Shown: positions 3,945 through 16,953, counted from the first letter of the stretch. The stretch: 16,953 bases of DNA from Thermoanaerobaculia bacterium (GCA_044226625.1 JBGAGQ010000096.1:1-16953), one strand, 5' to 3'. The notes: generated from the letters alone by a model not told the origin. Numbers and translations: made by a program.

Positions 3945-5531
3945 TCACTTCGCCACCGCGTGCTCCATGGCGCGCTCGGCGAGCGCGGCGATGGTGCGGG
4001 TCGGGTTCCTTCCGATCGCCTCGGGGAGGATCGCTCCGTCGACCACGAAAAGGCGCTCGTGCCCGAAGACGCGGCCGAGGTGGTCGACCACACCGTCCGC
4101 GGCGCTCCGCCCCATGTTGCAGCCGCCGAGCGGGTGGGGCGTCACGAGCATCCGGAGGAGCGTCCAGGTGGGGGGCACCCAGGGATCTCCGCCGGTGGCC
4201 GCGGAGAGCCGCTTGTGCATCGCGATGATCGCCTCGACCACCGCCTCGGATTTGTCGATCTCCCAATCGAGCTTCAACGTCCGCTTCCAGGGAGCCCACC
4301 ACTTGCGGCCAAGGCGGAGGCGCCCATCGGCGGCGTCGATCCCTTGAGCGAACCAGGGCATGACGTTGCCGAATCCCGGCTTTCCCTCGAGACGCTTCTC
4401 GAGCGAGCCGAGGAGTTTCTTCCACCGTGTGTCCCGGCTCCCTTGGACGATCGCCTCCTCGAGGTAGCCGAGCAGCAGATCGGGGAAGCCGCCGTCTTCG
4501 ATGAAGAACCTCTGCCCCCCTTGCGAGCCGTCGAGGAAGTCGATCGCCGACGAGATCGTCGGCCCCTGGGTCGGGTTGATCACGCGGTCTTTCGGGTAGA
4601 AGGCCGGGGTCAGGAAATCTCCGTTCGACGACCAGCCGACGCCGAGGCGCGGGCTCAGGTTCGAGAGGGTTCGGTATTGATCGCGGCAGCGGAGCAGCAG
4701 CTCGGTCGAGCCGAGCGAGCCGGCGGCGACGACCACTTTGGCCGCGGTCTCGCTGCCGGGGATGAGCCGGCCGTTCTCGATACGGTCGAAATTCACCTTC
4801 CAGGCGGTGCCCCGCGGCTCGATCGATCGGACCAAATGGAGCGGCCGGACCTCGGCCCCCTTCTTCTCGGCCCAGGCGAGATAGTTCAGGTCGAGCGTGT
4901 TCTTCGCCTTGACGGGGCAGCCGAGGTCGCAGAATCCCAGATGGACGCAGGTCCCCTGTTCCACGCCCTGGGCGTTGACGAAGGTCTCGGAATGCCCGTG
5001 GTCGAACGGGTTCGGCAGGTCGTAGCTCCACTTCTCCGAGAACGACACGGCGAGGTCGAGCGGTTGGAAACGGTGCCCTTCGCCGATCTTCTCCGCCCCC
5101 TCCTTCATCATGGCGAAGCGCCGCGTCACCTGGTTGGCCGGGATGGGCCGCACGGCCATGAATTTCGCGACGCGGTCGTAATAGGGCTTGAGCTCGGCAT
5201 AGGTGATCTCGGGGGGCCAGCCGTTCTCGAACAGATCGGGTCGCGCTTCGACCGAGATGTTGGCGTAGATCAGCGAGCCGCCCCCTACACCGGCACCCTG
5301 GGCGACCACCATGTCGCCGAAGAAGCGGAGGTCGATCCAACCGTTCTCGCGTTCGGGGTGGTCCGGATCGTAGCTCCAGGCGTCGCCGGGCTTTCGTGGA
5401 TAATCGTCGACCGCCCAGCGGCGTCCGCGCTCGAGCACCAGCACCCGGTGCCCCGCCTCGGCGAGCCGGCAGGCGGCGATCGAGCCGCCGAACCCGCTGC
5501 CGATGATGATCGCGTCGTAGCTCTGTGCCAT
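3945..5531 (-). CDS. GMC family FAD oxidoreductase, cholesterol oxidase-like, cytoplasmic
   Basis: Rossmann motif YDAIIIGSGFGGS..VLERG, plus GAGVGGGSLIYAN, VVVAAGSLGSTELL, IEDGG, HPLGGCNMG and VVDGA..P.AIGRNPTRTIAALAER. GGGAG RBS upstream. No signal peptide. Confidence 0.93.
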   Translation of the reverse strand: MAQSYDAIIIGSGFGGSIAACRLAEAGHRVLVLERGRRWAVDDYPRKPGDAWSYDPDHPERENGWIDLRFFGDMVVAQGAGVGGGSLIYANISVEARPDLFENGWPPEITYAELKPYYDRVAKFMAVRPIPANQVTRRFAMMKEGAEKIGEGHRFQPLDLAVSFSEKWSYDLPNPFDHGHSETFVNAQGVEQGTCVHLGFCDLGCPVKAKNTLDLNYLAWAEKKGAEVRPLHLVRSIEPRGTAWKVNFDRIENGRLIPGSETAAKVVVAAGSLGSTELLLRCRDQYRTLSNLSPRLGVGWSSNGDFLTPAFYPKDRVINPTQGPTISSAIDFLDGSQGGQRFFIEDGGFPDLLLGYLEEAIVQGSRDTRWKKLLGSLEKRLEGKPGFGNVMPWFAQGIDAADGRLRLGRKWWAPWKRTLKLDWEIDKSEAVVEAIIAMHKRLSAATGGDPWVPPTWTLLRMLVTPHPLGGCNMGRSAADGVVDHLGRVFGHERLFVVDGAILPEAIGRNPTRTIAALAERAMEHAVAK

Positions 5532-6480: not shown

Positions 6481-7599
6481 TCAGGCCGCGGTCGCCGAGT
6501 AGCCGCGCCGATGTTTGTCGATGAACTCCACCAGGCGCGGGAAGATGTCCTTGTCGTTGTTCTTCCCCATGAACGGGTCCTGATGGCCGTAGCCGGGGAA
6601 GATCACCAGCTCGTGGCGCCCGGGCACGATCTTTTCGAGCCGCTGGTGGCAGACGACGTTCGAGTCGGTGAACACGCGGTTGTTCGCTCCGGTCATGAAC
6701 AGCACCGGCGTCTCGATCTCCCGTGCGTGCTCGAAGTAGTCGTTCGGGAGCGAGGCGTACTGCCTGTCGCCGGGCCGATATTTGACCGCCGTGTGGTTCG
6801 CTCCGAGCATCTTCGCCACGTGGCGGTAGTAGTTCATGCTGGTCGCGCCGTAGAGGTCGCCGCCGCGCGCGTGGGTGACGTCCGCGAGGTTTGCGTGCTC
6901 GTAGAGCGCGGGCCAACCGGTTCCCCACATCATCGAGAGCATGTGGCAGGCGGGCACGTCGCACTCGCGATGGAAGAACGAAACGATCTTCGAGAAGATC
7001 CAGCCGCGGGTGAGCGCGGGATCCTCGCTCCAGCGCGGATCGAGGTAGGGGAGGCTCAATACGTAGTCGACCAGGAACGGTGCCACGGAGATCTTGATCC
7101 GCGACCAGCCGGGCACGCGGGGGGTGAGCGCCACGCTGTTGGCGATCACGCTCGAGATGCCGGTGACGGCGCGGCCAAACAGCGACATCATGAACGACAC
7201 CGACCCCAGGCAGTGGCAGATCACGTGGATCCGCCGGTCGCCCACGTGGCGACGGATCTCGGCGAGGGCCGCCGGGAAGTCGTAAAGGGCGACGTCGTCC
7301 ATGTTGTACCGGTGGCGCTTCAGGTTGTAGCTATGCCGGTTGCTCATCCGAAAATCGAACGACCAGACGTCGGTGAGGCCATGGTCGAGCAGATAGCTCA
7401 CCAGGTTGTAATGCTCCGGCATGATGAACATGTCGGTGGACGTGGTGAGCCCGTGGATGATCAGGACGACGTCGTCGCATTCCTTCCGGAAGAAGCGGAA
7501 CGCCGAGAGCCCGAGCTGGTCGTCGGTAGTGATGTAGTGCGTGGAGATGTCGGCGTCCTTGACGCCTGCCAAGGTAAAGAGGGGGATTTCGCGCGCCAT
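6481..7599 (-). CDS. Alpha/beta-fold hydrolase of the GMC/cholesterol-oxidase-associated type, with a Cys nucleophile
   Basis: GGAGG RBS at 7607-7611. Motifs VLIIHGLTTS, DVWSFDFRMS, 'DDVALYDFPAAL', nucleophile elbow VICHCLGS, PVLFMTG and C-terminal PGYGHQD. Confidence 0.88.
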   Translation of the reverse strand: MAREIPLFTLAGVKDADISTHYITTDDQLGLSAFRFFRKECDDVVLIIHGLTTSTDMFIMPEHYNLVSYLLDHGLTDVWSFDFRMSNRHSYNLKRHRYNMDDVALYDFPAALAEIRRHVGDRRIHVICHCLGSVSFMMSLFGRAVTGISSVIANSVALTPRVPGWSRIKISVAPFLVDYVLSLPYLDPRWSEDPALTRGWIFSKIVSFFHRECDVPACHMLSMMWGTGWPALYEHANLADVTHARGGDLYGATSMNYYRHVAKMLGANHTAVKYRPGDRQYASLPNDYFEHAREIETPVLFMTGANNRVFTDSNVVCHQRLEKIVPGRHELVIFPGYGHQDPFMGKNNDKDIFPRLVEFIDKHRRGYSATAA

Positions 7600-8497: not shown

Positions 8498-9892
8498 ATG
8501 AGCCTCCTGACGTTTCGTGATCCCCGGCTCTCGCGCTGGCAATCGGTCGTCGACGAGGTGTTGAGCCGCGGCTCGGAAGGCTCGACGCCCGGTACGCGCC
8601 GACCGACTCTTGATCACCCCGACGCCGCTGCGGCGGCATCCGCTTGTGCCCACGCCACGACCACGGCAGGCGCCGGCGCCGCATCAGCGGCCTCCGACCC
8701 CGGCGGTCCGCCGGTGTTTTCGAGCTCGAAGCCCCCCAGGACGCGGGACGAGTGTGCGCGGCTCGCGTTGCGCCTGGCCACCGCGAAGGTCGAGCGAAAG
8801 CCGGCCGAGGAGATCGAGGCGCTCGAAGAGGATCTCAAGTTCGGCGTCTGCGATCCGGTCTGGGCGGCCGTGGTCGCCCAATACGTCGCCGTCGTCGACG
8901 TCGAAAAGGACGCGATCCCCTATCGGCCATCGACCGGGCCGGGCGATCCGGCGCCTCTCGTCCTGCCCGAAAACGCCACGGTGGCCTTCCTCGGGGACTG
9001 GGGCACCGGCACGCCGGAGGCGATCGCCCTCCTGGAGAAGGTGGCCGCCCACCGGCCGGACGTCCTGATCCACCTGGGAGACGTCTACTACAGCGGCACA
9101 GAACGGGAGAACGACGAATACTTCCTCGCCCCGATCGACAGGATCTTCGGCCGCGGGGGCGATCGGCCGCTCCCGGTGTTCGCGCTGCCTGGAAACCACG
9201 ACATGTACTCGGGGGGCGCCGGCTACTACCGTACGCTCGACCGTCTGAACCGGCCGCCGTTCGCCCCGGAGGGGCAGCTTCAAACCCACAGCTTCTTCGC
9301 CCTGCGAAGCTCCGGCTGGCAGATCCTCGGGGTGGACACCGCGCTTCATGACGAGGACCTGTTCGATGTCGCGACCTCGATGACCTACCTCGAAGAGCCC
9401 GAGCTCGCCTGGATGAAAGACAAGATCCGGGGCGCGGCCGGCCGGCGCACGATCCTGCTCTCGCACCATCAACTCTTCTCGGCCTTCGTCGCGATCGGCC
9501 CGGAAGAGAACGGCGACCGCACGATGAATCCGCGCCTTCGGGCGCAGCTCGACGACGTTCTCGGCTCGATCGACCTCTGGCTCTGGGGGCACGAGCACAA
9601 CCTGGCGATTTTCGCCCCCTACGCCGGCCTCGCGCGGGGCCGCTGCATCGGTCATGGCGCGATTCCGGTTCTCGCGAGCCTCGATCCCTACACGCCGCGC
9701 GCGGTCGGAAAGATTCCCCTCCTGCCGAGTCCCACCGATCCCGCTCAGCCGATCCGCCTCGGCACGACGGGCGAGGCCTACAACCACGGTTACGTCATCG
9801 CCCGCCTCGACGACGCCGCGAAAACGGCGCGCGTCTCGTACTACCAGGATGCGGGGGACGAGCTGATGTTCGAGGAGGTGGTCGGGGGGTGA
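8498..9892 (+). CDS. Calcineurin-like metallophosphoesterase with an N-terminal extension of about 160 aa
   Basis: All five motif blocks are present: FLGDWGTG, IHLGDVYYSG, LPGNHDMY, LSHHQ and WLWGHEH. Confidence 0.92.
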   Translation: MSLLTFRDPRLSRWQSVVDEVLSRGSEGSTPGTRRPTLDHPDAAAAASACAHATTTAGAGAASAASDPGGPPVFSSSKPPRTRDECARLALRLATAKVERKPAEEIEALEEDLKFGVCDPVWAAVVAQYVAVVDVEKDAIPYRPSTGPGDPAPLVLPENATVAFLGDWGTGTPEAIALLEKVAAHRPDVLIHLGDVYYSGTERENDEYFLAPIDRIFGRGGDRPLPVFALPGNHDMYSGGAGYYRTLDRLNRPPFAPEGQLQTHSFFALRSSGWQILGVDTALHDEDLFDVATSMTYLEEPELAWMKDKIRGAAGRRTILLSHHQLFSAFVAIGPEENGDRTMNPRLRAQLDDVLGSIDLWLWGHEHNLAIFAPYAGLARGRCIGHGAIPVLASLDPYTPRAVGKIPLLPSPTDPAQPIRLGTTGEAYNHGYVIARLDDAAKTARVSYYQDAGDELMFEEVVGG

Positions 9893-12210
9893 AGCACGGC
9901 GGGATTCGGGCTCAGAGCCGTTTCGAAAAATGGAACGGCTTGGATGCCGATCGACTCGATCAGATGCTCGGTCTGCCGCGTTTCCTAGGCCGATCGGGAA
10001 GGACGACGCGCCTGGCCGAGCTGCTCGCGGATTTCGGCTTTCTTCAGGCCAAGTTGTCGAAGCGAGGACCCGCGGCCCTGCTCGCCGATTTCGCCGCGGT
10101 GAACGACCCCGCCCTGGCCCCGATTCGCGACGCCCTGCGCAACGCGGCGGCGGTGCTCGAGGAGCAGCCGCTCGAGCTGCCGACCCAGCTGCTCGCTCGC
10201 TTGAGCGCCGCCGCCGAGCCGCCGGTTCCGGCTCTCTTGGAGCAAGCCCGGCGCGCCGATTTCGGGCCCTGGATTCTTCCCGTCAATCCGTGCCTCGGAA
10301 GGCCCGGTTCCTCGCGGCTCGCGACCCTGCGCGGCCATACGGCGCAGGTCACCTCGGTCGCCGCGCTGCCCGACTCCCGACATGCCGTCTCCGGATCGAG
10401 CGATCACACCTTGCGGCTCTGGGATCTACAGGAAGGGGTGTCCGTGCGCCCGATGGTAGGGCATGCCGGACCGGTCTACGGCGTGGCCGTCTCCCCCGAC
10501 GGCAAGCTCGCCGTCTCGGCCTCCGACGATCGCACCGTCAGGGTGTGGGACGTTTCGACCGGCGCTCTTCGGTGGACGCTCCACGGCCATGCGGGGCGCG
10601 TCCGGGCGGTCGCGACGACCCCCGACGGCCGGTGGGTGATCTCGGGCTCGGAAGATGGGACCTTGAAGGTTTGGGATCTCGCCGCCGGCACGTTGCTGCG
10701 CACCCTGGAAAGGCACGCGGGCGAGGTCTTCGCGGTGGCCGTCGCCCTGGACGGCAGGTTCGCCTTTTCGGGTTCGATGGACCGGACGATCAAAGTTTGG
10801 GATCTGGACGAAGGCCGGTTGCGCTCGACGCTCTCCGGGCACGGCGACTCCGTCTGGGCGATCGCGCCGATTCCGAACGCCCCGCGGATCGTCTCCGCCT
10901 CGACGGACGGAACGCTCAAGGTTTGGGACCTCGACGCCGAGCGCGAGCTCCGTACGCTCGGCGAACCGGGTCCGGCGGTGACTTCGCTCGCCGTGACCGC
11001 CGACGGCCGATCCGTCTTCGCCGACTCGGGCGGCTGGACACTCGTGCGTTGGGACCTCGATCGCGGCGAGGTGGTCGCGCGTTTCGCGGGGCACAGCACC
11101 TATCTGAACGCGGTCGCCTTGACGCCGGACGGATCGAAAGCGATCTCGGCCTCGGAGGATCTGACGCTCCGGGTTTGGAATCTCGCGGGCGGGGGCGACC
11201 TGCCGCAGCCGCATCATGCCGAGGCGGTCGTCTCGATCTCCTGCACTCCCGAGGGGCGCGCCGTCACCGCGTCGAACGACGCGACGTTGAAGGTCTGGGA
11301 TCTCGCCACGGGCGAGGAGCGGCTGAGCCTCACGGGGCACGACGCCCATGTGGTGGCGGTCGTCGTCACGCCAGACGGACGGCGCGCGGTCTCCGGCTCC
11401 GGCGACCGCACGGTCAAGGTATGGAATCTGGACACTGGTGCCGAGATCTGCACCGGACGAGGCCACACCGACGAGCTGGTGAGCCTCGCCTTGACGCCCG
11501 ACGGCCGCCGCGCCGTATCCGGCGCGAAGGACCATACGGTCGCGGTGTGGGATCTCGAGAGCGGCGAATGCCTTGCTCGGCTCAAGGGGCACGAGGAATG
11601 GGTGACCTCGGTCGCCGTCTCGCCGGACGGGCGCCTCGCGCTCTCCGGTTCCAGGGATCGAACGCTCAAGGTTTGGGACCTTTCGAGCGGGACGTTGCTT
11701 CGCACGCTCGTCGGCCACGAGGGCTGGGTCAACGAGGTCGCGATCCTGCCGGACGGCCGCCGCGCCGTCTCGGTCTCGGAAGATTTCACCGTGCGGGCGT
11801 GGGATCTCGAGACCGGCGAGGCGCTGTTCTGCGCGAACGCGGGAGGCTTCATGGTCTATGCCCTGGCCGTCAGCCCCGACGGTCGCCGAGCGATCACCGG
11901 TGGAGCCGACCTCGCCGTGCGGATCTGGGATCTCGCGACGGGCGAGGAGGTCGACTGTTATTGGCACTCGCGCGGCCTCTATGGTGTCAAAAACGTGATC
12001 GTGACGCCCGACGGATCGAAGGTCGTCTCGGTCGCGGACGACGGATCGTTGCAGGTCTGGGACCTCGAGCGAGGCGAGTGGATTTCGACCTACCACGGTG
12101 AGCAGATGTTCTTCGTCTGCGCGGCGGCGCCGGACGGCAAGACTCTGATCGCCGGAGATCGGCTGGGGTTCGTCCACATCCTGCGACTCGTGGGGTGGGA
12201 AGACCTCTGA
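9889..12210 (+). CDS. APAF-1-helical-domain-like + 15 WD40 repeats (7+8 double beta-propeller); no NTPase
   Basis: The GTG start overlaps the upstream TGA (GTGA). N-terminal 'LPRFL..SG...RLAELLADFGFLQAKLSKRGPAALLADF...IRDALR...L.EQP.ELPTQLLARL'. I counted 14 GH..WD-type repeats plus a terminal 'CAAAPDGKTLIAGD..GFVHILRL' blade. Confidence 0.92.
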   Translation: MKHGGIRAQSRFEKWNGLDADRLDQMLGLPRFLGRSGRTTRLAELLADFGFLQAKLSKRGPAALLADFAAVNDPALAPIRDALRNAAAVLEEQPLELPTQLLARLSAAAEPPVPALLEQARRADFGPWILPVNPCLGRPGSSRLATLRGHTAQVTSVAALPDSRHAVSGSSDHTLRLWDLQEGVSVRPMVGHAGPVYGVAVSPDGKLAVSASDDRTVRVWDVSTGALRWTLHGHAGRVRAVATTPDGRWVISGSEDGTLKVWDLAAGTLLRTLERHAGEVFAVAVALDGRFAFSGSMDRTIKVWDLDEGRLRSTLSGHGDSVWAIAPIPNAPRIVSASTDGTLKVWDLDAERELRTLGEPGPAVTSLAVTADGRSVFADSGGWTLVRWDLDRGEVVARFAGHSTYLNAVALTPDGSKAISASEDLTLRVWNLAGGGDLPQPHHAEAVVSISCTPEGRAVTASNDATLKVWDLATGEERLSLTGHDAHVVAVVVTPDGRRAVSGSGDRTVKVWNLDTGAEICTGRGHTDELVSLALTPDGRRAVSGAKDHTVAVWDLESGECLARLKGHEEWVTSVAVSPDGRLALSGSRDRTLKVWDLSSGTLLRTLVGHEGWVNEVAILPDGRRAVSVSEDFTVRAWDLETGEALFCANAGGFMVYALAVSPDGRRAITGGADLAVRIWDLATGEEVDCYWHSRGLYGVKNVIVTPDGSKVVSVADDGSLQVWDLERGEWISTYHGEQMFFVCAAAPDGKTLIAGDRLGFVHILRLVGWEDL
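10327..12189 (+). repeat. WD40 coding repeats (about 126-nt period, e.g. recurring ACGCTCAAGGTTTGGGACCT-like units)
   Basis: Roughly 42-aa repeats with the consensus GH...V..VA..PDGR.AVSGS.D.TLKVWDL. Confidence 0.85.
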
Positions 12211-12211
12211 T

Positions 12212-14317
12212 ATGGCCTCGGAGGTCGAGCTCTACGGGCTGCAGAGCCTTGCCCGTCACCTCGTCGACAGCGCCGACGCCGAGCGTCTGAACGCCCTCCT
12301 GTCGCGGTTCGATTTCCTGCGCCGCAAGCTCGCCGCCGTGGGCCTGGTCGAGCTGTTGGCCGATTTCGATCGGCTGCCGCCGGACGCGCCGCTACGCTCG
12401 GTACAGGCCGCCCTCCGGCTGTCGGCTCCGGCACTGCAGCGCGAGCCGCGGGAGCTCGCGGGGCAGCTGGTCGGCCGCCTCTCCGCCGCGACGCCCGAGG
12501 GGGTCCGATTGCTACGGGACGCCGAAGCCCACCCCGACGGACCGTCGCTCGTTCCGCGGTCGCCTTCTCTCCTTTCCGCGACGGGTGGGCTGCGCCAGGC
12601 GTTGCGAGCGGGAGGGGGCCATCTCGCGGTCACCGCCGACGGGCGCTGGGTTATCGCGGGTGGGAGCATTGTCTGGGTCTGGGACCTGACCGGCGTCCGG
12701 CCGCTGCGCTGGTTTCGCGGTCCCCGGAGCGGCATGAGCGCGATGGCCCTCGCCCCCGACCCGCGTTGGCTGATCGTCGCCGATCCGAAGGGAGGCCTCG
12801 CGATCTATCTCTGGGAAACCGGTCAGCGCAGTCACCGGTGGAGAGGGCACCCAGGGGGTGCCACGGCGGTCGCCGCCCTCGACGGGAACCGCTTCCTCTC
12901 CGCGGGAAAGGACGGCCTGATCAAGCTTTGGAGCTTGAAGGGCGGTCGCGCGCTCGCGACGTTTCGCGGCCACGACACCGAGGTGGTCGGGTTGGTGGTC
13001 GCCCCCGACCGAACCCGGTTTGCGAGCGGTTCGGTCGACGGCGCGATCCTCGAATGGAGCCTCGACGCCGGGGCTCCGGCGCGTCGTCTCGCGAGAGGCC
13101 CCGAGCGGCTCGAGGCGCTCCTCGGCAGTCCGGACGGGAGGTTTCTCGTCGCGTCCGGGGCCAAGCCGAAGGTCGTGATCTGGGACTGGGCGTTTGGCGA
13201 GGTGGTCCGCGAGATGTCTTCTCCCGACGCTTCGACGCCACGGCTCGCGATCACCCCGGACAGCCGACGGCTCGCGATCTCCTCGAGCTCCGAGATGCGG
13301 CTCTGCGATCTACCGCCGGGGGACGAGAGCCGAGTCGTGGCGCGCGGCCGCGTCGGCGGCCGGATCGCTTTTCTGCCGAGCGGCGAGCGCTGGGTCAACG
13401 ACGAATCGGGATTGCGCGAATGGGAGCTGACGCGCGAGGTCGTCGCCGATCCCGGTCCGGGATCTCAATCGCTTGCGGTCACCTCGGACGGTCGCCTGGC
13501 GGTGGCGGGGTCGCCTGACGGCTCGATCGCGGTTTGGGATCTCTCAACCCGGCACGAGGAGCTGCGCTTCGCCGCTTCGTCGGTCTCGCTCGGCGCGCTG
13601 GCGCTGTCGCCGGACGGTCGGCAGGTCTTCGTCGGCGACCGCCAAGGCGGCATTCACCGTTTCGATCTCCGAACGGGGGAGAGGTTGCCGGCGCCTCGGC
13701 CGCTCGAACCGGGCAATGGAGTGGCGGCGCTCGAGCTCACCGACGATGGCCGGCACCTGGTGGCCGGCGCGGTCTGGGGAGACGTTCTCGCCTGGGACCT
13801 CGCGGAGGAGCGCCTGATCTCCGAGCATCGATTCGAGCCGTCCTACCTGATCACCCTCGCTCTCATCCCGGGTACGACGCAAGCGATCGTCTGCTGTAAC
13901 GACGAAGACGACCAATCTCCCTGGGTCCTCGACTGGAGAGAAGGCCGGCGGTTGCGACGCATCGGGGGCCGCCACGACGCCGTAATCGCCGTGGCGGTTT
14001 CGGCCGACGGCCGCCGCGCGGCGACCGGCGGGCAGAGCGGGAGCCTCAAGGTCTGGAGCCTACGGGGCAGGCATCCGACCTACTTCCCGGGGCATGGCGG
14101 CGGCGTGAATTCCATCGCGTTCCTTCCCGGCGGGCGCCAGGTCGTGGCGGTGGCCCTGGAGGGAATCCTCCGCGTCTGGGAAGTCGCCACCCGGAAATGC
14201 CTCGCCACCTTTACCGGCGATTCGGGTTTCCGCCGCTGCGCCGTCGCTCCGGATGGCCGGACGATCGTGGTTTCCGGCGAGAAGGACGAGCTGCATTTCC
14301 TCCGCTGGCGCCGTTGA
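12212..14317 (+). CDS. APAF-1-helical-domain-like + about 14 divergent WD40 repeats; no NTPase; paralog of the upstream gene
   Basis: ATG lies 1 nt after the previous stop. N-terminal 'YGLQSLARHLVDS....RLNALLSRFDFLRRKLAAVGLVELLADFD...VQAALRLSA..L...P.ELAGQLVGRL'. WD40 blades follow, ending in 'TFTGDSGFRRCAVAPDGRTIVVSGEKDELHFLRW'. Confidence 0.9.
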   Translation: MASEVELYGLQSLARHLVDSADAERLNALLSRFDFLRRKLAAVGLVELLADFDRLPPDAPLRSVQAALRLSAPALQREPRELAGQLVGRLSAATPEGVRLLRDAEAHPDGPSLVPRSPSLLSATGGLRQALRAGGGHLAVTADGRWVIAGGSIVWVWDLTGVRPLRWFRGPRSGMSAMALAPDPRWLIVADPKGGLAIYLWETGQRSHRWRGHPGGATAVAALDGNRFLSAGKDGLIKLWSLKGGRALATFRGHDTEVVGLVVAPDRTRFASGSVDGAILEWSLDAGAPARRLARGPERLEALLGSPDGRFLVASGAKPKVVIWDWAFGEVVREMSSPDASTPRLAITPDSRRLAISSSSEMRLCDLPPGDESRVVARGRVGGRIAFLPSGERWVNDESGLREWELTREVVADPGPGSQSLAVTSDGRLAVAGSPDGSIAVWDLSTRHEELRFAASSVSLGALALSPDGRQVFVGDRQGGIHRFDLRTGERLPAPRPLEPGNGVAALELTDDGRHLVAGAVWGDVLAWDLAEERLISEHRFEPSYLITLALIPGTTQAIVCCNDEDDQSPWVLDWREGRRLRRIGGRHDAVIAVAVSADGRRAATGGQSGSLKVWSLRGRHPTYFPGHGGGVNSIAFLPGGRQVVAVALEGILRVWEVATRKCLATFTGDSGFRRCAVAPDGRTIVVSGEKDELHFLRWRR

Positions 14318-14364
14318 GCCGGTCCGTCGGCCACGGTGCCGAGCGACGTTGTCCGGTGATCGAG

Positions 14365-16677
14365 CTAGGCCCCCGCGCCTTCCTCAGGTCCGAATAGGTC
14401 CTCCCAGAGAAGGTCGGCGATCCGGCCGTTCCGCTCCTTGAGCCGCACCCGTTCCTCTTTTACCTCGTCCTTGGCTGCGATGAACTCCTGGAAGCTCGCG
14501 TGGTAGAGGCGATACTGCTTCTGCCGCTCTCCCGACTCCGGATCTTCCGTTTCGGCCGCGTAGAGGAACTCCCGCCATTGGTCGAGTACGGACTGAACCC
14601 GCCGGGTGTCATCCACCCCGGCGAAGCGGGCGATCAGCCCGAGGGAAATCGGCTTTTCCACCACCGTGAGCGCTTCGAGCACCGGCAGCTTCCAGTCGAA
14701 CCAAGCCTGCTCGTCGCGCGACCGGATGCGCCGCCAGTGGTCCTCGTAGTAGCGCGCGAGCCCCCTCGGCAGCTGCTCGAAGCGAAGGTCCTGATAGGTC
14801 CCGGCCTCGATTTCCGGCAGCACGTGACGTAGGTACATGAAGTTGCCCTGGCTGCGCTCGACCATCGCTTCGACGAATCCCTCCGCCTGGAGGCCCTGCT
14901 CCCCGGCCCAGGCGAGGAGACCCGGGCTCAAACGGCGGCGGACCAGCTCGCGGACGTCGTCGAGGTTGGCGCGGTCGTCCTGCCGGATCTCGAAGGTCCG
15001 GGGCTCGAAATCCAGCAGCAGCGGCGCCCCGCCGGGTCGCGAGCTGAGGACCATGTGGACGCCGGGCGGCAGTCGGCGGGGAAGGAAGAGGAGGTTCGCG
15101 TCGGGGGCCGACGGGTCTCGGATCGCCTCGTCGAGGGCATCGACCACGACGGTCACCTTCTCCTGGGGGTCCAGGCGAGCGGAGATCTGGTCGAAAAGAT
15201 CGGCGAGGAAACGGCCGTTCGTGGTCGCCTCGGGAGGCAGCGAGGAGTAGTCCAACCGGTAGGCGGCGATCAATTGGGCAGAGACGTTGGCGAGGAAATC
15301 CGCCGCGCTCTGAAGGCCTTCGGCGCGGATGTTGAAGTGGTGGACCCAGCCGTGGCGCCGCACCAGCTCGGCCATCAAGGAGGACTTGCCGATACCGGGC
15401 TCTCCTTCGAGCAGGAAGACGCCGCGCGGAGTCTCGGCGAGGAAGCGGTCGATCTCGGAAAAGATCCATTCCCGGCCGACGAAGGTGTCCGCCTCGTCGA
15501 CGAGAAGTCGGCCGAAGCCGCGGATCTTCTGCCGGATCTGCGGCGACACCTCTCGGATCGAGGGCATCCACCGCTCGGTTTCGGCCTCCGTCGGGCAGGT
15601 CGCGAGGGGATTGGCGAACAGCGCGTAGGCAAGCCACGAGGCGTCGCCCGGAAAGCGATCTCGCACCTCGATCCGCGCGGCCCGCGCCGCTTCGGCCACC
15701 GCGGTGCCCGCGAACAGGGCGCCGTAGAACGCCCGCGAGAAACAGAGCGCGGCCTCGTCGCGGACCGCCCACGAGGTGCCTAGGAACGCGCCCGCTCCGA
15801 CGTGGAAGAAGTCGTGCGCCCAGCCACCGAGGCCGGTAAGGGAAAACCCCGAGCGCGCGGTCTGGCAAGCGTTCAGGAAGATCAACGGCCGCCGGGACCG
15901 GAGGTTCGCGCGGTCGTAAAGATCGTCCGGCCGCAGCTCCGTCCCGCCTTCGAGCTGGATCCAGGCGCGCTGCGGCTCGTTCGCCGGAGTCGCGGCGTGG
16001 CTGGCGAAATGCCAGCCGTCATGGACGCCCTGGCCCAGAGATTCCACCACCGCCGCGGGGCGGGCGCCGATCTCTTCGACGAGACGGCCGTCGCTCCGTT
16101 GCGCGAGTAGGAGCTCGCGCTCCGCCTCGGTGTGGGAGAGGTTCGAGTCGCGCGGCGAGACCAGGGCGATCCGTCGCAGGGGGAGACGCGTGGCGTCCGG
16201 CACGCCGCGGAGCCAACGGGCGAGTGCGAACTCCTCGCCGAAGAACTTCCCCGGCCGGCTCTCCTGGTCGCGAAACTTCAATAGCTCCCACGGGATCCAC
16301 GGCTCGTCGGAGAGGACTTGGAGGGTCTGCACGGTGTCGCGCAGCCGCTCGAATCGCCTTTGCAAGGGCTCGGGGAAGAGCTTTTCGAACAGCCGCGCTC
16401 CCTTCCCCGCCAACCGACGTTCGACGTCCTCCGGCGCGGCGTCGCGCGGCAGAGCGCGAAGGTCTTCGAACAGGGACTGGAAATAGGCCGCCGGCTGCCG
16501 GTCCAGCGCGATCGGTCCGAACTCCTCGAAATTACCTCCGGGTTGCTCTTCACGAAAAACCAACGTGTAGAAGAGCTGATGCCTCGTCTCGCTCGCCTCG
16601 TAACGGACGCGCAGGATGAGGTCGGGCAAGTTGGATCGAGGCGCGGCCGGACCAGAGGCCGGATCGGTTCCGATCAT
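14365..16677 (-). CDS. CHAT (caspase-like) protease fused to a STAND (NACHT/AAA_16-like) NTPase with helical and winged-helix domains, lacking a C-terminal sensor
   Basis: CHAT motifs: DEPWIPWELL, WHFASHA (His227, 15997-15999), IFLNACQT (Cys271, 15865-15867), GAGAFLGTSWAV and WLAYALF. STAND motifs: FVGREW, Walker A GEPGIGKSS (GxxGxGKS at 15382-15405), Walker B VVVDALDEA (15124-15150), SSRP, SQGNFMYL and winged-helix end YRLYHASFQEF. Confidence 0.93.
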   Translation of the reverse strand: MIGTDPASGPAAPRSNLPDLILRVRYEASETRHQLFYTLVFREEQPGGNFEEFGPIALDRQPAAYFQSLFEDLRALPRDAAPEDVERRLAGKGARLFEKLFPEPLQRRFERLRDTVQTLQVLSDEPWIPWELLKFRDQESRPGKFFGEEFALARWLRGVPDATRLPLRRIALVSPRDSNLSHTEAERELLLAQRSDGRLVEEIGARPAAVVESLGQGVHDGWHFASHAATPANEPQRAWIQLEGGTELRPDDLYDRANLRSRRPLIFLNACQTARSGFSLTGLGGWAHDFFHVGAGAFLGTSWAVRDEAALCFSRAFYGALFAGTAVAEAARAARIEVRDRFPGDASWLAYALFANPLATCPTEAETERWMPSIREVSPQIRQKIRGFGRLLVDEADTFVGREWIFSEIDRFLAETPRGVFLLEGEPGIGKSSLMAELVRRHGWVHHFNIRAEGLQSAADFLANVSAQLIAAYRLDYSSLPPEATTNGRFLADLFDQISARLDPQEKVTVVVDALDEAIRDPSAPDANLLFLPRRLPPGVHMVLSSRPGGAPLLLDFEPRTFEIRQDDRANLDDVRELVRRRLSPGLLAWAGEQGLQAEGFVEAMVERSQGNFMYLRHVLPEIEAGTYQDLRFEQLPRGLARYYEDHWRRIRSRDEQAWFDWKLPVLEALTVVEKPISLGLIARFAGVDDTRRVQSVLDQWREFLYAAETEDPESGERQKQYRLYHASFQEFIAAKDEVKEERVRLKERNGRIADLLWEDLFGPEEGAGA

Positions 16678-16746
16678 GGAGCGCGCTCCTAAGGGATCCG
16701 CCGACTTTAGCAGTTCCTGTGGCGCGCCGGCCTCGAAGCTCCTACC

Positions 16747-16953
16747 TCAGTATCCGAGCCCGGGGTCCGGCACCTTCAGGCCGAGGTGTCGTTCGCACAC
16801 CTCGTACGCGGGATCGGCGTGGAGCAGCGCCACGTTCTTCAAGATGCAGTAGCTCGCGATCAGCCGCTGGTAAGGGGGCGGAACCGGGGCGCCGCGCGCT
16901 TTCAAGATCCTCCCGTTCGTGGCGCTCGCGAGCGCCACCACGGTCCCGCCGAT
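16747..16953 (-). CDS. Partial (5'-truncated) PIN-domain/VapC-like protein, C-terminal half, with degenerate acidic motifs
   Basis: The frame is open to the window edge: IGGTVVALASATNGRILKARGAPVPPPYQRLIASYCILKNVALLHADPAYEVCERHLGLKV. This aligns by eye with the VapC pattern A..AA.NYR.LR..G.TVRKTID.LIAT.CI.....LLH.DRDF......LGL.V. Confidence 0.7.
   Translation of the reverse strand: MGGTVVALASATNGRILKARGAPVPPPYQRLIASYCILKNVALLHADPAYEVCERHLGLKVPDPGLGY

Follow-up and report, generated by a model that had tools for sequence, protein, structure and literature searches.

Receptors of the NLR/STAND kind are taught, and have been tested in bacteria, as single chains whose sensor holds the switch shut. 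Apaf-1 of the apoptosome and Dark share one module order, namely NTPase, HD1, winged-helix domain (WHD), HD2 and two WD40 propellers, and Apaf-1 is a single polypeptide whose protease is recruited through a CARD. The antiviral Avs/bNACHT STANDs combine effector, NTPase and sensor, are thought to oligomerise on ligand, and are described as single chains in the available text of the sources (PMC13581612, PMC10907252 and the preprint 10.1101/2022.07.19.500537). In this article, I discuss a locus in which that chain appears to be divided between genes. It lies in a 16,953-base stretch of DNA, hereafter the window, which is the whole of one contig (G000:C104, about 69% G+C) of a metagenome-assembled genome of a Thermoanaerobaculia bacterium (GCA_044226625.1, JBGAGQ010000096.1). 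Four genes are tightly packed in its right half, encoding a phosphoesterase, two WD40 proteins (WD1, or P0001, and WD2, or P0002) and a CHAT-STAND protein (P0003), and this locus is likely a split NLR/STAND receptor, with P0003 as the engine and WD2, and possibly WD1, as sensor subunits; the split is real, and probably functional. An initial annotation, made from the sequence alone, had placed three intact open reading frames here on opposite strands, and the open reading frame calls and translations confirm them as follows, with P0003 converging on WD2.

9889-12210, plus strand: WD1 (P0001) sensor gene, 773 residues, intact open reading frame with a GTG start
12212-14317, plus strand: WD2 (P0002) sensor gene, 701 residues, intact open reading frame
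14318-14364, no strand: spacer of 47 nucleotides separating the stop codons of the two convergent genes, WD2 and P0003, read from the sequence
14365-16677, minus strand: CHAT-STAND "engine" gene (P0003), 770 residues, intact open reading frame with Pfam matches

The locus follows the Apaf-1 order, but its chain is cut after the first helix past the WHD, its CHAT protease is fused to the NTPase, and it has two sensor genes. Single-chain bacterial proteins that run from CHAT or TIR through NACHT to WD40 or helical repeats are homologous to both of its halves, arranged in the same order. CED-4, whose fold P0003 matches, is also a STAND NTPase without sensor repeats and is controlled by a separate protein; that protein, CED-9, however, belongs to the Bcl-2 family and is not an HD2-sensor half split off from a common ancestral chain. 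In contrast to the Avs/bNACHT proteins, P0003 is sensor-less, and this lack of the same-chain sensor repeats of the usual tripartite NLR is what makes it a variant. Split NLRs on the effector side (EAD-coupled effectors, amyloid-motif pairs, and a CARD-NLR with a separate protease) likewise employ neighbouring genes and a dedicated docking element, but according to the available text of PMC8195603 they are cut between effector and NTPase and joined by homotypic adaptor domains, whereas here the cut falls between NTPase-WHD and HD2-sensor. The best fold matches for the CHAT part, Craspase TPR-CHAT (Csx29) and SAVED-CHAT, are proteases switched by an upstream sensor, which is a CRISPR effector or a cyclic-nucleotide sensor, and neither uses a STAND NTPase. 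All of the domains, as well as single-chain CHAT- and TIR-NACHT-WD40 proteins, are already known; the conserved NTPase/sensor split was not found in print, since no description of it as a conserved gene pair appears in the literature searched (supplements excluded), where the nearest mention is the phrase "split proteins" in the methods of an Avs7/Dsr1 analysis (PMC13581612, available text).

The engine is built from the following parts, of which HD1 and the winged-helix domain are named after the fold match to Apaf-1.

15658-16401, minus strand: CHAT protease domain, residues 93-340 (PF12770, 69 bits against a cut-off of 24)
15997-15999 and 15865-15867, minus strand: putative His-Cys dyad, H227 and C271 respectively, invariant in 22 of 22 aligned sequences
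15022-15486, minus strand: P-loop NTPase core, residues 398-552 (AAA_16, NPHP3_N and NACHT matches)
14473-14973, minus strand: HD1 and winged-helix domain, about residues 569-735 (AlphaFold2 secondary structure and invariant columns)
14392-14442, minus strand: conserved C-terminal tail helix, residues 746-762 (family conservation and complex model)

It had been claimed from the sequence that this CHAT-STAND protein stops about 40 residues past its winged-helix motif, and the measured distance is 38 residues after YRLYHASFQEF (residues 722-732), with no sensor repeats anywhere in the polypeptide. The domain reading held up equally well, with CHAT, AAA_16 (residues 398-518, 39.6 bits, cut-off 32.6) and NACHT (421-552, 29.2 bits, cut-off 26.7) all above their curated hidden Markov model cut-offs, together with NPHP3_N (31.9 bits, cut-off 24.8). 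Within the 22-sequence family alignment, the Walker A motif GxxGxGK[ST] reads GEPGIGKS with invariant glycines and lysine (K431 at 15385-15387), the residues G425, G428, G430, K431, D516 and E517 do not vary, D513 is nearly invariant (at least 90% of the sequences), and the winged-helix motif keeps Y725 and H726 throughout. The Walker B motif, DALDE (513-517), fits D[GAS]hDE, which the preprint 10.1101/2022.07.19.500537 gives in its available text as the NACHT signature. The cysteine and lysine that the initial annotation had singled out, C271 and K431, are therefore both invariant across the family, and on this conservation H227 and C271 would form the catalytic dyad of the CHAT domain, which is of the caspase fold, while the winged-helix histidine H726 may contact the nucleotide. 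Foldseek matches the CHAT part to Csx29 TPR-CHAT (7zoq_A, E-value 2.3e-10), 8tl0_A (9.5e-7) and separase, and the NTPase part to Apaf-1 (3shf and 1z6t, about 1e-7), CED-4 (2a5y_B, 1.8e-6) and MalT (8bob_C). The AlphaFold2 model of P0003 has a mean local confidence (pLDDT) of 79.3, and its tail helix is of low pLDDT in this monomer, as would be expected of a helix that needs a partner.

One of the two candidate sensors is WD2, and its parts are these.

12215-12268, plus strand: docking helix, residues 2-19 (translation and model)
12215-12529, plus strand: HD2-like helical module, residues 2-106 (AlphaFold2 model)
12545-14311, plus strand: two beta-propellers, residues 112-700 (WD40 Pfam matches and AlphaFold2 model)

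Its model (pLDDT 88.2, pTM 0.85) shows eight N-terminal helices followed by the two propellers, and in Foldseek it superposes on apoptosome Apaf-1 over some 790-800 columns (5juy_A, TMq 0.74; 3j2t_A, 0.72). Two residues of the docking helix, Y8 and H16, are nearly invariant, being conserved in at least 90% of 26 sequences.

That the engine and sensor genes are complementary halves of one NLR cut at the WHD/HD2 border is strongly supported, first of all by proteins in which the two are still joined. A fused TIR-NACHT-APAF1_C-WD40 protein of 1249 residues (P0095) aligns through its residues 179-538 with P0003 399-759 (E-value 2e-26) and through 544-1240 with P0002 2-698 (2e-41), so that five residues separate the two matched halves, no segment is present twice and no more than a few residues at the ends go unmatched. 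Its APAF1_C region passes the Pfam cut-off (32.1 bits) and begins at profile position 29, the equivalent of the first helix of WD2, which puts the cut either where the WHD meets HD2 or one helix further on, inside HD2. Another fused protein, P0103 (1606 residues), aligns with P0003 265-767 and then with residues 15-736 of a helical partner, and P0107 (1462 residues) aligns with P0003 372-763 and then, through its own residues 631-1386, with WD1 23-737. Fused forms are thus known for each sensor type, and these proteins (P0095, P0103, P0104 and P0107) are 28-44% identical to P0003 and 24-40% identical to the partners.

The place of the cut is shared far beyond this genome. Among the 22 aligned CHAT-STANDs (32-77% identity), 21 end within a few residues of the P0003 end, after the conserved tail, the exception being P0023 with its long unrelated tail. 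When residues 385-770 of P0003 were searched with phmmer against 1.84 billion cluster representatives (clusters at 50% identity), 6286 proteins matched at an E-value of 0.001 or better and 1209 at 1e-30 or better, and of the best 150 representatives 141 end no more than 30 residues past the P0003 end, 3 end 31-100 residues past it and 6 more than 100, the single-chain forms being this minority of six. The NTPase module of relatives is joined to TIR, trypsin-like, caspase or DUF4062 domains instead of CHAT, and 16 of 41 related genomes hold a match at 1e-20 or better. The sister genome (G002) contains a true STAND ortholog, 77% identical and of equal length, together with a WD2 ortholog, 74% identical, in the same convergent order.

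These comparisons also bear on whether the locus might be a fused gene that an inversion has split and that is now decaying and no longer works. Such an inversion, if it turned round the 3' half of the gene, would yield exactly this convergent geometry, and the nearest NTPase relatives have co-directional partners; yet every open reading frame is intact with its catalytic residues kept, the sister genome shares the arrangement (74-77% protein identity), 10 of the 80 loci, spread over several clades, have a convergent partner, and most members of the clade are split, so that decay is scarcely credible. For the same reason the locus does not look like a recent rearrangement among fused relatives, which would have counted against the initial annotation: such relatives exist, but only as six of the best 150.

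The second line of support is the neighbourhood of the NTPase genes. Eighty loci were sampled from Acidobacteriota, Chloroflexota, Actinomycetota, Planctomycetota, Desulfobacterota, rhizobia and methanogenic archaea, and their six-frame translations (15,026 frames) were searched in two rounds with a profile of the partner N-terminus, with this outcome.

Partner on the same strand, -60 to +200 nucleotides from the NTPase stop: 38 loci in round 1, 41 in round 2
Partner convergent, ending beside the NTPase stop: 7 loci in round 1, 10 in round 2
Partner elsewhere in the locus: 10 loci in round 1, 11 in round 2
Partner not found: 23 loci in round 1, 16 in round 2
Contig end reached: 2 loci in round 1, 2 in round 2

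A partner with the shared docking helix therefore adjoins the NTPase stop in 51 of the 80 loci (41 co-directional and 10 convergent), counts that lean towards the profile since it was built from the same 80 loci, while fewer than one match is expected by chance in the 260-nucleotide same-strand window. The second-round profile gave 81 matches in 62 loci. The recurrent pairing of sensor-less STANDs with stand-alone HD2-sensor genes that had been foreseen for homologs is therefore borne out, and the adjacency, taken with the stop shared by 141 of 150 representatives, makes the cut typical of the family and not a local accident. In G000 itself there is exactly one NTPase of the clade and exactly two partner modules, all of them within the window.

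At least two kinds of partner occur, some being double WD40 propellers and others lacking any Pfam family, and a WD1-like propeller gene is present in 29 of the 80 loci. In relatives, an open reading frame of 900-1000 residues overlaps the end of the STAND gene by 4 nucleotides on the same strand; it matches no Pfam family and begins with a WD2-type first helix. More generally, Pfam-less partners of about 900-1400 residues follow the NTPase gene with a 4-nucleotide overlap or a short gap and carry the shared docking helix (for example L045:9500-12547, L046:9539-12583, L023:10147-13125, L055:9119-11773 and L057:9156-12650), and these are presumably helical-repeat sensors. In one locus from an Acidobacteriota metagenome-assembled genome (L030, 9921-10340), tallied above as "elsewhere" and really adjacent, STAND and partner are in frame and separated by a stop codon (10056-10058) plus one codon; judging by that reading frame, mutating one base, or reading through the stop, would be enough to switch between the fused and split forms.

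The third line of support is a predicted contact between the halves. P0003 385-770 (alignment of 22 rows) was modelled with WD2 1-140 (26 rows), and the complex scored 0.80, 0.79 and 0.80 in three runs, against 0.00 for the best of three controls, although solved Apaf-1 structures hold these helices in one chain and the score may reflect that likeness and not binding. The benchmark mark for this score is reached by 58 of 80 solved complexes versus 2 of 110 mismatched pairs. Contacts agree between the runs to at least 65%, and the pLDDT of the partner is 72 or higher. The predicted interface joins P0003 672-684, 712-714 and 746-762, that is, the winged helix and the tail helix, to WD2 2-38, and the pairs of least expected error link P0003 747, 750, 751, 753, 754, 757, 758 and 761 to WD2 8-20 and 35, including the near-invariant Y8 and H16. 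In the model, then, the first helix of WD2 packs against P0003 at its tail helix and winged helix and would rebuild the WHD-HD2 junction in trans, which for this pair agrees with the HD2-on-WHD interface anticipated by the initial annotation. Collinearity, shared stop, adjacent partners and modelled interface together place the cut at the WHD/HD2 junction, where it had been proposed to be.

The standing of WD1 is less clear, beginning with its parts.

9949-10308, plus strand: HD2-like module, about residues 21-140, with an atypical first helix (partner-module profile)
10309-12207, plus strand: fourteen regular WD40 repeats (Pfam and repeat analysis)

It had been thought that both WD40 proteins begin with a helix of the YGLQSLARHL type, and this is true of WD2, whereas in WD1 the conserved tyrosine and histidine are replaced, by D or Q (depending on the alignment) and by F. 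It is possible, if rather doubtful, that WD2 is the only cognate sensor and that WD1 is an orphan or a borrowed protein, one that does not dock, acts as a weak competitor or decoy, or works independently. The replaced positions are conserved in at least 90% of the 26 sequences, and H16 is among the modelled contacts of least expected error; WD1 is only 30% identical to WD2; its nearest relative (49-50% identity), which converges on the L022 engine and keeps both docking residues, belongs to a different CHAT-STAND clade; in the sister genome all that is left of the WD1-type gene is a 3' stretch of about 19 codons; and a search with WD1 residues 1-150 returned just 5 matches, all of them fused NB-ARC or NACHT-WD40 proteins and none a close ortholog. 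Nevertheless, WD1 is intact, its fourteen repeat copies (10368-12077) being spaced regularly at 120-132 nucleotides, mostly 126, and GGAGG about 12 nucleotides ahead of its GTG is a plausible ribosome-binding site. The rest of its HD2 module fits the partner-module profile at an E-value of 9.6e-34, and G000 has no other NTPase of the clade for it to serve. An adjacent co-directional partner in L043 likewise lacks the Y and H (N and Y stand there), so that the change in WD1 need not be disabling, and engines with multiple partners are found in 9 of the 80 loci. I therefore keep WD1 as a possible second sensor of the split receptor, beside WD2.

The initial annotation had further supposed that the two sensors are exchangeable, and this is borne out on the evolutionary scale only, by switches of sensor type on the NTPase tree. 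A quick maximum-likelihood tree of 81 rows (partner types: 17 WD40, 40 other, 6 both and 18 unlabelled) requires at least 11 changes of partner type, of which the well-supported branches alone force 6-7, and the partner labels are barely more clustered on it than shuffled labels. The window STAND pairs with its G002 ortholog at 100% support, and the two are nested among Acidobacterial CHAT-STANDs; since the latter have helical co-directional partners, the lineage of the window has replaced its sensor. The Acidobacterial WD40 sensors form three sub-lineages with about 30% identity between them, and different genomes combine these differently: G000 has a WD1-type and a WD2-type sensor, G002 has two of WD2-type, and L022 has one of WD1-type and one of a third type. 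At least two partner modules lie downstream of the NTPase gene in the 9 loci mentioned above (for example L059 and the archaeal L095).

A more sweeping claim is that a large prokaryotic NLR-like NTPase clade, spread across several phyla, is natively heteromeric, engine and sensor being subunits that meet at a split helical junction, with one engine serving alternative sensors (here WD1 and WD2) that are gained, lost and swapped as cassettes at that junction, and with the repeats described below for G002 being scars of such swaps; I put this forward tentatively, as somewhat less likely than not. Tandem partner genes stand behind one NTPase gene in L059 (9104-14300), L095 (9109-13803), L060, L058 and L043, and such loci span Chloroflexota, Actinomycetota and a methanogenic archaeon. 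Six loci (L052, L058, L060, L071, L076 and L078) have both WD40-type and other partners. In L022 (5680-12614), from Acidobacteriota, the CHAT-STAND gene (39% identity to P0003) lies between two WD40 sensor genes on the other strand, one divergent upstream and one convergent downstream, the latter being the closest relative of WD1. In G002 (L013), a 111-nucleotide copy of the STAND 3' end, 92% identical, lies just past the first sensor gene (6503-6613 versus 8789-8899), and a remnant of a WD1-type 3' end precedes each sensor gene (4327-4395 and 6597-6665, 75% identical to each other). A simple recent duplication of the sensor was considered for G002 and rejected, the gene bodies being about 50% identical in DNA against 92% for the copied STAND tail. 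To go by their sequence, the junction repeats may be the scar left when a cassette was duplicated or replaced or when gene conversion took place.

Besides the biases of profile and score given with those results, several observations weigh against the split receptor. The STAND and sensor genes are on opposite strands and hence not co-transcribed, and WD1 and WD2 sit in a tight operon with the phosphoesterase gene instead of with the STAND. No partner module was found in 16 of the 80 loci with the second-round profile, and a narrower profile, built from three WD2-type N-termini only, matched the helical partners of G006 and G001 weakly (E-values 4.5e-4 and 1e-3), missed the partner in G003, and was abandoned as too weak in favour of the wider one. 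The initial annotation had expected an APAF-1 helical domain and WD40 repeats in both sensors; the WD40 Pfam matches are very strong in each, while APAF1_C (PF17908) stays under its cut-off of 22.8 bits in both, at 21.7 bits (E-value 2e-4) on WD2 7-54 and 15.5 bits (0.016) on WD1 36-70, a gap that for WD2 is filled by the fold match to Apaf-1. The contig ends 276 nucleotides (16678-16953) past the STAND start, leaving the promoter side and any neighbour there out of view. The surroundings lend nothing to the conflict or anti-phage role suggested by the initial annotation: PADLOC reports no defence system in the window and gives only a partial Avs1b-like match (E-value 3.6e-9, P0003 406-746 against positions 210-540 of a 1924-position profile), P0003 failing a full-length match to any known Avs type; nothing in the window marks a defence island, the other neighbours (a sulfatase, a GMC oxidoreductase and an alpha/beta hydrolase by Pfam) have a metabolic look, and no substrate of the P0003 protease has been identified.

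Some of these points would suit a locus whose adjacency is coincidental, with the WD40 genes working alongside the phosphoesterase operon and P0003 acting alone under a control like that of CED-4 by CED-9. The opposite strands, the overlapping or abutting phosphoesterase, WD1 and WD2 genes, and the partnerless loci all fit such an arrangement, which is nonetheless very improbable in view of the collinear fused proteins, the partners adjoining 51 of 80 NTPase genes, the confident interface model, a phosphoesterase present in just 1 of the 80 loci, and the fact that the sole two partner modules of the genome adjoin its sole NTPase of the clade.

Other points concern purpose. STANDs of the MalT and AfsR type serve signalling and regulation in normal physiology. 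A split NLR that is real and serves signalling or regulated proteolysis in this manner, in stress or development and not in immunity, would account for the missing defence-island context and PADLOC system, for the metabolic neighbours, and for a locus that is syntenic in the sister genome without sign of mobility. This purpose is nevertheless unlikely: relatives join the NTPase module to TIR, trypsin-like, caspase and CHAT domains, which is the effector set of conflict systems (PMC7159879 and PMC8195603, available text), and sensor type and number turn over fast on the NTPase tree, as is typical of conflict genes. It is solely from the effector repertoire of the clade and this rapid turnover that the defensive role of the split receptor is inferred.

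By analogy with Apaf-1 and the Avs-type STANDs, a docked sensor would keep the NTPase closed, and a ligand bound by the propellers would release it, whereupon nucleotide exchange and oligomerisation would bring the CHAT domains together and the proteases, activated by proximity, would cleave a target. On the same analogy, the likely purpose would be a cell-death or growth-arrest response to an invader, and the separate genes would let sensors duplicate, vanish or be replaced without touching the engine. No gasdermin was seen among the window open reading frames scanned with Pfam, a scan that bacterial gasdermins may escape and that stops where the contig does. A 249-residue open reading frame beside the G002 STAND was considered as a substrate or gasdermin candidate and rejected as a gene, being of low complexity and without a Pfam match; its relatives are the window's own end and a weak 39-residue match in L064 (E-value 4e-4).

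If the split receptor is what it seems, titrating and swapping sensors would open autoinhibition and activation to study in trans, and the locus would show a cell widening its recognition repertoire without duplicating a dangerous effector, as well as offering a natural template for engineering modular receptors. Since the split recurs in many bacteria and archaea, the sensors of NLRs may be swappable subunits. There is also a consequence for annotation, in that the "sensor-less" NTPases of this clade (at least 1209 clusters, by the phmmer search) and the stand-alone WD40 or helical-repeat proteins may be halves of one receptor.

The remaining gene of the packed group is the phosphoesterase.

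8498-9892, plus strand: calcineurin-like phosphoesterase gene, 464 residues (PF00149 match)

Its stop overlaps the GTG start of WD1 (GTGA), with which it is probably co-transcribed, and a single base separates the WD1 stop from the WD2 start. The N-terminal 160 residues of the phosphoesterase match no family. The gene is conserved beside the sensors in the sister genome only (L021) and, having no PADLOC match either, was set aside as a component of the system and left as a neighbour. Three other candidates were tried and dropped: an N-terminal extension of WD1, whose frame is open from 9352 and is an Arg/Pro-rich shadow of the phosphoesterase without a start codon; a terminator in the 47-nucleotide spacer, which folds no better than shuffled sequence (z -0.35); and an invertible switch, as no inverted repeat longer than 32 nucleotides flanks the sensor genes and no recombinase is present among the open reading frames scanned with Pfam. 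On the STAND-start side of G002, the next real gene resembles a peroxiredoxin (L013 12306-12890). Finally, contig G013:C7 of a relative has a cluster of many CHAT-domain genes at about 41900-56800 and at 96200-98500, and pieces of it (54466-55200, 55178-55930 and 56271-56807) resemble a fragmented CHAT-STAND.

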